NCBI GenBank assembly: GCA_963813135.1
Contig: CAWEXY010000016.1
Coordinates: 1-34,799, forward strand
Source: an uncultured Verrucomicrobiae bacterium
GTDB taxonomy: Bacteria > Chlamydiota > Chlamydiia > Chlamydiales > Rhabdochlamydiaceae
Direction: 5' to 3'
DNA length: 34,799 nt
The position numbers and the translations under genes are program-made. This document shows, piece after piece, positions 6,127 through 11,788 of this stretch (positions within the stretch are counted from its first letter, which is position 1; each line of letters starts with the position of its first letter). A model generated the notes under the pieces. It had not been told where the DNA came from. It searched no databases and saw only the letters and a list, made by a program, of their open reading frames with translations.

Positions 6127-9100
6127 ATGTGGAAGGTTATTGCTTTCTTACTTCTGTCCGCTGCCGCTATTGCGAGCGAAAAACGCATCTTGGCCGATCC
6201 TTACGTCCATTTTGAGACGGAGGGAGAGCCCGGATATAAAATCTGCGATGCGGTCAGCGCCGTTTCAGGGTATGTCGTTCACCAAGATGATATTGTTATT
6301 CCAGGTGTAGAGCCGATTCGGATTCCTCGCCTTTATATCAGCGGCGACTCCAAGACCAGCGAACTCGCCGGCTGGACGTTTTTTCCTCATTCTAAACTTT
6401 TCAAATATAAAAAGGATGGGGGCTACAAATCTAAAGGCCATACGAAATATTACGTTCCTGAACCTTCCGGCGCTGTGATTTCGTACACCAAGGAAAAAAA
6501 ACACACGTACAAGATCGATATGGACAAGCATGGCTTTGCCATCACCAACACGGCAGGGCCATATATCTCCGCCAGGACCAATCTCGCTCGCAATGTGCTC
6601 CTTAAGAAAAAGAAAAATTGGGTTTTTCTCAATACAGCTGAAGGCGGAGAACGGGCCTATGAACGAAAGATCGAGGAGTCGGAAGACGATCGACGCATTT
6701 ATTCCACCTATCTTCTCCAATGGGAAAGATTGCCGAATGGGAACTACATCCACTATGGCTATGATAAAAATCATCGTATCAATGTGATTTTGACGAAAAA
6801 TCCCGCCCGCAACAAGACCTATGCCTCGGCAATAATCTCCTATTTTGGCGAGAAAAATTTTAAAATTGAGACCTCGGATGGGCGCATCCTGCATTTTCAT
6901 TTTGGGAAACGGGATGGAAGCTATTTCCTTGATCATATCGACAATAATTTCGCGTTTACTGAAACTTTTGCCTATTCTTCCCCTAACGAACACCCTAATC
7001 CCTATCTGCAAAAAATGAGCGTGCCCTTAGGGCGTTATTGGCGCGCAGAATATTATCAGACAGGCAATAACGATGTAGACGGCACATCTGTGAACATTTC
7101 AGATCACAACTTCCGCCGCCGCCGCGTAAAATTGCTCTTCTCACCAGTAGGAACGGACGACTCCCCTATCAAAACCCATGCGTTCTTCTACAACGATAAT
7201 AAAAAGAAAAAAAAGGGCTTTGAGTGGCCCTGCGTCACGCATATTTATGACGCCTATGGCCATCATATCGAGGTTATTTCATCGCCCACCATGCGTCCTC
7301 AGAGCACCACTTGGTTCATCGGCAAAGATCAACCGTATTGCTCAGAAAAAACGGTTTGGGAAGGCCATCTTCTCAAGCGTAAAATCTTTTGCGATGAAAA
7401 GGGAAATCCTCTGCAGCAGCGCATATTTACCTACGACGGTAAAGGCAACGTCCTAGAGGAAAGCTTTTTTGAGAAAGAGAATGAATGCCGCATTACAAAA
7501 TACCAATACAACGATCAAAACCTCATGGTCCGAAAAGAGGACGCCGCCGGCCTCGTCACGCTTTTCTCCTATTTGAAGGGCACGGACCTGCTCTCCGCTC
7601 GTACAACCACTGACCACCAGAAAATTTTCGTCCGGGAACTTTTTGAGTACGATGGCGATCATATTTTAGTGCGCTACATCAAAGAAGCCGACGGCAGAAG
7701 ATGGGTCCGCTACATCGAGCCCTCTCCCAATGGCCTTCCTGCGGCCATCGATGAACGCTATACCGAAGACGGTGTAGAAAAAAGGCTTAAACGCGTTGAA
7801 TATACCTATTCGCCTCAGGCAAAAGTGACCGCAGAGCGCGTCTTCGATGCCGAAGGAAGGCTCTCATATACCCTCCACAAAAAATATAACCCTCTCGGTC
7901 AAATCATCGAAGAGACCGATGCTTTAGGACAGATCACACGCCACACCTACGACGTTTTAGGCAATCAAACGGGTATGCAGGAACCCTCAGGCCTGCATAA
8001 AGAGATGGTCTATGACTATGCTAACCGCCTCATACAGCTCACTGAATCGGGCGCCAGTGAAAAGCATACCATCTCCTACCAATACGACTTAAAAAGCCGC
8101 AAAATCGCTTCGACAGATTCATTCGGAGGAACGACCCGCTTTAGTTACGATCCCTTCGACCACTTGGTGGCCACACACCATCCGGATGGAACAAAAGAAG
8201 AAGCTTCCTATGACTGTATGGGGCGGAAGACGAGCCTGACAGATGCCTGCGGATTTACGACGGCGTACCGTTACAATTTTCAAGGAAAGCCCCTGGAGGT
8301 CCTCCACAGCGATGGAACGGTCGAGAAGTTCACCTATGACCTTAGCGGAAGGCTCACGAGCTCTACCGACGCACAAGGCGTCGAGATCCGCTACGTCTAT
8401 GATGTCTTCGGCCGCGCCCTTTCCAAGACAACCCTCTCCCCTGCCGGAGAACAGCTGGCCGTTGAGTCTTGGGCCTATGATTCGCTGCATCTCCTCGCCA
8501 AAACAAGCGTCGATGGGCAAGTGACAACATACCAATACGATGGCGCCGGCCGTAAAATCAGTGAAAATATCTCCGGCGATGCCACAACCTTTGCTTATGA
8601 CTCTTTGGGCCGCCTCTCGCGCACATCGCGGGGCGGACGCGAGACCGTTACAGTCTATGACCTTCTCGATCGCGTCGTCGAAGAGCGCATAGATAATCTC
8701 TATTCCGTTCAATATGCGTATGACTCTGCGGGAAATCAAACAGAGATCATCCGCTCTGGCGGCATCGAAGCGACGCTCTATGATGCCTTCCGCCGGCCCA
8801 TTCAAATCGTCGATGCCCGGGGCCATACGACACGCATTGCATATGACGACGACAGCCCTCAGCGCAAAACAACGACCGCTCCCGACGGCGTCCAAACCGT
8901 AGAGACCTATGATATGCGCGGCCGCTTGCAGCTCAAAGAAAAAGTCTCTTCCTTGGGAGAACTCCTTTCCCAAGAAAAATACACGTATGATGGTAATAGC
9001 AACCTCATCTTGCAGCAAAATAGTGTCGTTTGGCAGGGGCGGATCGAGGAAGAGATCTACACCTCTTGGGAATATGGCCCCGAAAGAAGGCTTCTCTCTA

Positions 9101-11295: not shown

Positions 11296-11788
11296 ATTTT
11301 GGACTCTACTTTTTCTCACCTGCGCATGCCATCACCAACCGGATCACAGTGATCTAGCCTTTGCTGCGATGAAATCTTATGCAAAGCATCTCCAAAAAAA
11401 TTCAGGTCTTAGAATCACTGGCATGGGCGGTTCGATGATGAATGACATCGAAAGGTTTGAAATCTGGCTAGAACGAGACGATAAAATTTCTTTGGCGGAT
11501 GCTAGAAAATTGATTATAAAACTTACAGAAGGGTTTATTGACAAAATCAACGCTGATGAAAAAATTCGGCCCTTTCTCCACTCCTATCCCATTACAAATC
11601 AGAACGTGAATTTTCATATTATATTCAAAGCAGCCAAAACTCCTTCAACCCATGACTTCCCCTATTTTGTTTCGTTACATAGCGGAAAATTATGGTACAG
11701 AGCTCGGGGCATGTCTGAATATAATGATGAGCTCATTCTCAGCGAATCATACGCTGATGCTGTGAAGATTATCCATAGAGAGAAATGA
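11285..11788 (+). CDS. Putative Rhs immunity protein, probable lipoprotein
   Basis: ATG 11285 overlaps the rhs 3' end. MAYKFWTLLFLTCAC is a short signal with a lipobox-like Cys. ARKLIIKLTEGFIDKINADEKIRPFLHSYP resembles chlamydial hypothetical proteins I recall beside Rhs genes. Confidence 0.75.
   Translation: MAYKFWTLLFLTCACHHQPDHSDLAFAAMKSYAKHLQKNSGLRITGMGGSMMNDIERFEIWLERDDKISLADARKLIIKLTEGFIDKINADEKIRPFLHSYPITNQNVNFHIIFKAAKTPSTHDFPYFVSLHSGKLWYRARGMSEYNDELILSESYADAVKIIHREK

Follow-up and report, generated by a model that had tools for sequence, protein, structure and literature searches.

A signal-peptide Rhs protein with a predicted serine hydrolase tip and a tip-linked, probably exported partner in a Rhabdochlamydiaceae genome

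Chlamydiae are usually thought to fight their hosts, not each other. We analysed a stretch of 34,799 nucleotides (the window) from an uncultured member of the Rhabdochlamydiaceae (assembly GCA_963813135.1, contig CAWEXY010000016.1, here C16; genome of 1.83 Mb, 82% complete), in which a gene for a 1726-residue Rhs/YD protein (6115-11295, plus strand) ends in a hydrolase-like tip and is overlapped by a small partner gene. An earlier note, made from the letters alone, had read this pair as a caged phospholipase exported independently of a type VI secretion system (T6SS) and countered by a lipoprotein partner. The reading towards which we lean, with modest confidence, is an envelope-directed antibacterial Rhs esterase with an exported cognate immunity partner, which would leave the cell by Sec and then probably by the type II secretion system (T2SS) or vesicles.

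Among described systems, the Tle toxins of the T6SS are serine hydrolases followed directly downstream by the gene of an exported immunity protein (Tli), often a lipoprotein and often duplicated. The window locus resembles them in its serine hydrolase-type tip and in the downstream gene of a probably exported partner, whose family is often duplicated; it differs in having no linkage to VgrG or a T6SS, in carrying the tip on a signal-peptide-bearing Rhs shell, and in having AHSxG, not GxSxG, around the nucleophile. A Tle family was matched by one of 26 tip-family members (Tle3, weakly, E 0.004).

The motifs of the tip are those of Tox-ABhydrolase-2 (Zhang et al., 2012; PMC3482391), an RHS-borne alpha/beta hydrolase with the motifs NG, D/E, HSxG, D and H. 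Its table row lists chlamydiae, RHS and, among the export routes, T2SS, and the domain is described there as having no specific relation to known lipases. Judged by its motifs, the tip is probably Tox-ABhydrolase-2 itself and hence no novel toxin domain, these motifs being already listed for chlamydiae. No model of this kind gave a match in Pfam scans of the tip and the tip family, and the literature searched held no further relevant paper under this domain name. In our alignment of the family (A1), no column between the acidic residue and HSxG held [KR] in at least 90% of rows; the paper's table gives no position for this residue. The partners differ: the paper links the domain to Imm-SUKH, and the partner here belongs to a different, probably exported and nameless family.

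Sec-exported YD-shell toxins with unresolved delivery are known in other bacteria (PMC13018210). WapA-type and bacterial teneurin-like toxins (PMC13018210, PMC12704120) share with the window protein a signal peptide, a YD shell, a polymorphic tip, an immunity gene (predicted, in the window) and independence from a T6SS. They differ in that no adhesion, cell-wall-binding or teneurin head was detected here, the shell following the signal directly, and in that the producer here is an obligate intracellular bacterium. Residues 1-395 gave no Pfam or NCBIfam match to a TIP, TTR, FN-plug or NHL head, and TLP matches in the PDB were restricted to residues 1243-1447. Within the Chlamydiae, the rhs family of Waddlia chondrophila (wcw_0453, rhs11; PMC7143554) likewise offers an Rhs protein of similar build, about 200 kDa in size and predicted to begin with a signal peptide. 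DUF687 (PF05095) contains a homologous alpha/beta hydrolase domain (model positions ~30-210) with the NG motif kept; it differs in lacking the catalytic residues, adding a C-terminal membrane bundle and being a predicted inclusion membrane (Inc) protein (PMC11878206, PMC3048545).

The surprise in this locus is limited, since publications already cover the toxin domain, Rhs proteins with a signal peptide in chlamydiae and DUF687 as a hydrolase. What it supplies is a nameless predicted immunity family without a clear solved fold. In the literature searched, which most subscription journals lay outside of, we came across neither an account of this partner family, tightly linked to the tip, nor one of a T6SS in chlamydiae, nor any connection drawn from Tox-ABhydrolase-2 to DUF687.

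The predicted hydrolase tip, its scaffold and the linked partner

The tip spans 278 residues (10459-11292, plus strand), and its fold model and motifs point to a cutinase-like alpha/beta hydrolase. The AlphaFold2 model, built on a 26-sequence alignment, had a pLDDT of 92 and a pTM of 0.89. Foldseek returned 262 matches to it at E <=0.001, all listed rows being alpha/beta hydrolases; VIA placed a cutinase first (Z 15.1, root-mean-square deviation (rmsd) 3.0, 166 residues), then dienelactone hydrolases and esterases, with carboxylesterases also among the best folds. The motifs lie on the plus strand at 10705-10719 (NG), 10951-10968 (AHSQGG, Ser codon at 10957), 11098-11112 (RDGVP, with the Asp) and 11212-11223 (IDHG, with the His). 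Since the selection for A1 had demanded the Ser, the triad was recounted among the phmmer representatives (the best 150 of 1202); all rows covering the three positions kept Ser, Asp and His together (150 of 150). The motif columns held N in 142/149, G in 148/148, D in 151/151, H in 146/151, S in 150/151 and G in 150/151; the catalytic columns after HSxG held D in 150/150 and H in 151/151.

The fold model and the conserved triad support what the earlier note had proposed, and the tip very probably works as a serine hydrolase. The predicted fold gives no pointer to phospholipid as the substrate; the name phospholipase finds no backing in the best folds (cutinases, dienelactone hydrolases and carboxylesterases) or in the account of Zhang et al. 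(2012). The tip profile retrieved nothing below E 0.2 from the PDB sequences. A word-index search with the tip kept none of 699 candidates, which we attribute to low sensitivity given the 1202 representatives obtained with HMMER.

The Rhs gene is a single intact open reading frame whose start may be the second in-frame ATG, at 6127. By eye and by hydropathy its N-terminus, MWKVIAFLLLSAAAIA, is signal-like, and a Sec signal peptide is predicted at 6127-6174 (plus strand). A simple hydropathy score found a hydrophobic N-terminal stretch in 63 of 68 homologues of at least 1280 residues, and in these long homologues it runs straight into the shell. Family profile scans found no PAAR or VgrG family after the signal, in agreement with the earlier note; the only match there was a DUF6531-like shell start (6247-6378, plus strand; residues 45-88, E 6e-4), below the cut-off here and above it in a paralogue on contig C21. 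The YD-repeat shell (approximately 7402-10230, plus strand) matched RHS_repeat (PF05593, E 1.5e-68), TIGR01643 (E 7.5e-53), NF041261 and Rhs structures in the PDB (down to E 3e-45). It is 67% identical to that of the syntenic orthologue of a congeneric genome, where the equivalent locus lies between aroB and prfC. The Rhs-associated core (10231-10458, plus strand; residues 1373-1448; TIGR03696, E 1.5e-17) carries the conserved DPAG...DLYG motif ahead of the tip and ends in DPLLRLDLYGL, the predicted autoproteolysis site (DLYGL at 10444-10458). The signal-like N-terminus, the shell and the predicted autoproteolysis motif of the earlier note were all confirmed.

The partner (11285-11788, plus strand) has 167 residues, an N-terminal hydrophobic signal and no family name, and is the predicted cognate immunity protein. 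Its ATG at 11285 gives an 11-base overlap with the Rhs gene up to the stop. Of 27 partners, 26 had a hydrophobic N-terminus and six fitted the strict lipobox pattern; the window protein has a non-canonical lipobox, TCAC, at the position where two near relatives have LSAC. The proposal of an overlapping lipoprotein partner accordingly stands for the overlap and the hydrophobic N-terminus and is weakened for the lipid anchor. A Pfam scan of the 27 members gave no meaningful match, and a match of the partner to NF038106 was set aside (20.8 bits against a cut-off of 50). The fold model was confident (pLDDT 90) and alpha/beta. Foldseek found nothing under E 0.001 with it, and the best VIA row (Z 7.7, rmsd 3.2, 93 residues) was in the range of common arrangements. 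Homologues are annotated in their sources as 'hypothetical' or similar, and look-alikes are mostly from Chlamydiota. In some tandem arrays, partner domains have C-terminal extensions or are doubled in a protein of about 360 residues (L030, L051, L106); the extension in L030 looks by eye like MORN repeats.

Of 61 related genomes searched with profiles, 52 gave a match to the tip and 51 to the partner. For the linkage count we used 150 listed tip matches, less nine second-half duplicates and with one added, and the best 150 partner matches with one added (30 weaker ones left out); a pair counted as linked when the partner lay within 800 bases downstream of the tip. Among the matches listed, the partner followed the tip in 38 of 48 frames of at least 1600 residues, 5 of 9 frames of 1100-1599 residues, 15 of 34 of 400-1099 residues and 23 of 51 shorter ones. 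The same matches gave a linked pair in 43 of the 61 genomes; of 98 partner clusters, 79 lay behind a tip and 35 were tandem arrays of two to five partners, and many of the 19 not behind a tip were close to the start of a contig. In another count, of 94 tip matches, 50 had the partner downstream and two had it upstream.

As a control, we compared 91 Rhs cores scoring above the cut-off in 37 genomes. The partner stood behind 34 of 42 hydrolase-tipped cores and behind none of 49 with other tips, some of these 49 lying near contig ends and kin being non-independent. These sequence counts support a partner tied to the hydrolase tip and not to Rhs proteins generally, and the co-occurrence survey that the earlier note had called for thus found it specific to this tip. 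Other tips on 49 of the 91 cores also indicate that tips are interchangeable on one scaffold, as in the second Rhs protein of the window's genome, on C21, which shares the N-terminus, shell and core and has an unrelated tip. Behind nine other tips that we checked lie small genes whose products show no evident signal, and one of these (1/9 named) encodes Imm53 (E 2e-64); the predicted location of the partner changes with the tip. In genome G002, three cassettes of a tip fragment plus partner lie behind the full gene.

Relationship to DUF687

Pfam scans of the window tip and of its genome (in the latter, with the control silent) gave no PF05095 match above the curated cut-off. PF05095 was matched by 8 of 26 tip-family members, and several partner-bearing Rhs tips passed the cut-off (for example E 3e-16, model positions ~30-210). 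In the other direction, the tip profile found DUF687 proteins genome-wide (E ~1e-5) in three of five small genomes. The resemblance seen earlier holds for the family, in which homology to DUF687 (its N-terminal domain) shows in both directions, and not for a direct match of the window tip. The tip ends after the His helix with its triad kept and without a C-terminal transmembrane bundle; six DUF687 sequences kept the NG motif and not the nucleophile position. By this comparison, the tip family is a relative of DUF687, not a member.

The window's genome shares its GTDB order with genomes of 1.0-1.3 Mb that carry full-length DUF687, and in the five DUF687 genomes searched neither an Rhs core (0/5) nor a partner (0/5) was found. 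In a quick tree with midpoint root, four DUF687 rows fell on a long branch among mostly partner-bearing tips (SH-aLRT 92), which is compatible with a descent of DUF687 from a toxin tip and no proof of it. The tip thereby offers a possible origin for an uncharacterised family of Inc candidates in pathogenic Chlamydia. The expectation that it would give DUF687 a function was overtaken by a paper that already describes the family as alpha/beta hydrolases without activity that carry a membrane bundle (PMC11878206); CT326 and CPn0066 are among the predicted Incs (PMC3048545).

Export route and rival explanations

The premise that Chlamydiae lack a T6SS did not survive. TssC, the product of the sheath gene, scored above the cut-off in 4 of the 61 relatives; of 300 genomes from across the order (one unscored), 11 had it, in several families. 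A congener has a T6SS island of about 30 kb (G001:C3:407600-437600), within a 504-kb contig otherwise syntenic with the window's genome, with genes for IglE_N, TssA, TssB, TssC, TssE, TssF, TssG, TssK, DotU and a DUF4280-REase-9 fusion. Four T6SS clusters that we opened (L053/L044 in G001, L046, L048 and L049) were Francisella-like and contained DUF4280. The closest solved structure to the cluster TssC was Francisella IglB (E 4e-120; next 1e-109), and a putative tube gene had no PDB or Pfam match. These clusters are possibly more surprising than the toxin and its partner. The main text of a chlamydial pangenome paper contains none of the terms 'type VI', 'Rhs' and 'toxin', and its supplements may bear on the matter (PMC8242063).

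In the window's genome, tblastn found no match to any T6SS gene of the congener's island, and the genes that flank it are adjacent and contiguous (C13, 33558/33662); the absence of the island at the syntenic site is therefore real. The Phage_GPD profile found no VgrG in this genome, and we did not rely on it because it also misses the gene at the VgrG position of the relatives' clusters. Long tipped frames occurred in 41 of the 61 genomes, TssC in only three of those 41, and a PAAR family in one of the 61. T6SS-independent export, as the earlier note had it, holds for the window's genome and for most carriers (TssC absent in 38 of 41; empty island site). As to other routes, gspF-type genes and the secretin gene gspD lie together on C11 of the window's genome, and delivery of the Tc type was rejected after a profile search found no SpvB/TcB partner.

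By analogy with Rhs biology, the protein would be exported by Sec with cleavage of its signal, the shell would fold in the periplasm, and self-cleavage after DLYGL would leave the tip inside it. The shell might then pass into the inclusion through T2SS or in outer-membrane vesicles, and the tip might be released at the envelope of another bacterium in the same host cell, be it a neighbouring chlamydia or not. There it may hydrolyse an acyl ester, a membrane lipid being the first guess; the partner could neutralise the tip by binding it directly in the periplasm. A tip-specific, exported and amplified partner family in 43 of 61 genomes is what we would take as a genomic signature of envelope-directed attack between bacteria, and it raises the question of how a T6SS-free Rhs cage leaves a Gram-negative cell.

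Several points weigh against this antibacterial reading. How a T2SS-released shell gets into the periplasm of another cell is unexplained. The partial correlation of tip and partner divergence was 0.05 (350 of 999 permutations as high), other methods gave 0.11 (170/999) and 0.35 (2/999), so that the result depends on the method, and the partner tracked the shell at least as well as the tip. Many stand-alone tip homologues without a partner in the linkage count complicate the simple picture. In the quick tree, a clade of eight Rhs tips with intact triads lacks the partner (SH-aLRT 98) and is a candidate for a host-directed or housekeeping branch; its members (L006, L008, L009, L011, L012, L014, L017 and L018) have mostly shorter Rhs scaffolds, and in one the tip is fused directly to the signal peptide. 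Bacteria that live only inside host cells have few bacterial neighbours. A host-directed effector, whose hydrolase would act on inclusion or host membranes (remodelling, lipid scavenging or exit) while the partner guards the producer in transit, would accommodate this scarcity and the partner-less clade. It would also fit the Parachlamydia copy of Tox-ABhydrolase-2, which lacks an immunity gene and for which host targets were suggested (Zhang et al., 2012; PMC3482391), the ~200-kDa, signal-peptide-bearing Waddlia rhs11, listed without validation in a host-cytosol proteomics table (PMC7143554), and the homologous DUF687 domain on predicted Inc proteins (PMC3048545). Diverged tandem partner arrays and orphan cassettes would be superfluous for self-protection against one enzyme, and unrelated tips on the same scaffold have their own small downstream genes, one from a known immunity family. 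We regard a host effector as possible, with clearly more to be said against it than for it.

The locus might also be no conflict system at all but a secreted esterase for nutrient capture, with the partner as a dedicated folding or export helper in the manner of the membrane-anchored foldases of T2SS lipases. The partner is predicted to be exported or anchored and is enzyme-specific, the genome has T2SS genes, and there are stand-alone homologues of the tip outside Rhs proteins, several of which bring a signal peptide of their own. This account is unlikely: it sits badly with the position behind an Rhs core, the interchangeable tips, the partner arrays and the truncated-tip cassettes, and one entire clade manages without the partner. 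No foldase appeared among the VIA rows of the alpha/beta partner model, which has no clear structural relative. Very improbable, in our view, is that the Rhs protein is T6SS cargo orphaned in the window's genome. The clusters in the congener and elsewhere in the order would speak for it; against it stand the signal peptides on the long homologues, the near-absence of PAAR, the 38 carrier genomes without TssC, the empty and contiguous island site, and the DUF4280-fused effectors that the opened clusters have of their own.

The antibacterial reading may be extended, quite tentatively and with the chances against it, to an order-wide war by contact or vesicles inside shared host cells. In this wider picture, Rhs proteins released by Sec and T2SS would be the weapons, the esterase with its immunity partner the commonest module, and the DUF687 Incs (CT326, CPn0066) a domesticated tip that lost the cage, the antidote and the catalytic serine and gained a membrane anchor.

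Other Rhs genes and neighbouring features

A 15-pair, terminator-like hairpin (11843-11880, plus strand) marks the end of the two-gene unit, about 0.7 such sites being expected by chance in the stretch. A HicA-HicB pair (11898-12471, minus strand) directly follows the partner. Duplicated over 53 bases at 87% identity, the 3' end of the partner gene (11750-11802 and 12579-12631) flanks this pair together with short inverted repeats; from the sequence, a second immunity gene seems either to have received an insertion here or to have left a remnant. At this position, the congener carries a different HicB-like gene.

The Rhs gene on C21 (G000:C21:45278-51027; L001 4279-10028) encodes a signal peptide, and its frame is broken near 46410-46500. 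Its tip is nuclease-like as a motif-based guess without a Pfam match, and a gene for an acidic protein of 109 residues lies downstream. Frameshifts also split prfC, glgP and a type III secretion ring gene (window 13363-14961; G000:C13 29579-32168 and 35707-36601); with such housekeeping genes affected, the assembly likely carries indel errors, and broken frames are possibly artefacts. Among the sequencing runs listed for this DNA, none was of RNA, and four DNA rows with a small share came from one study.

Next to the C21 Rhs gene, on the opposite strand, lies a stand-alone tip homologue of 314 residues (G000:C21:51466-52410; L001 10467-11411, minus strand) without signal, Rhs or partner, kin of stand-alone forms of about 500 residues elsewhere. 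Some representatives carry the domain N-terminally or mid-protein, in proteins of 750-1540 residues. The nearest named clusters among ESM Atlas look-alikes of the tip include one that is mostly viral (Uroviricota) and one of Myxococcota, a lead hinting that the hydrolase domain also occurs in phages and predatory bacteria.

Chlamydial markers accompany the locus: the genome has three full-length ATP/ADP translocases, and the window encodes a 684-residue protein with DUF562 (20975-23029, plus strand), a domain also known from Chlamydia proteins that are predicted Incs (PMC3048545).

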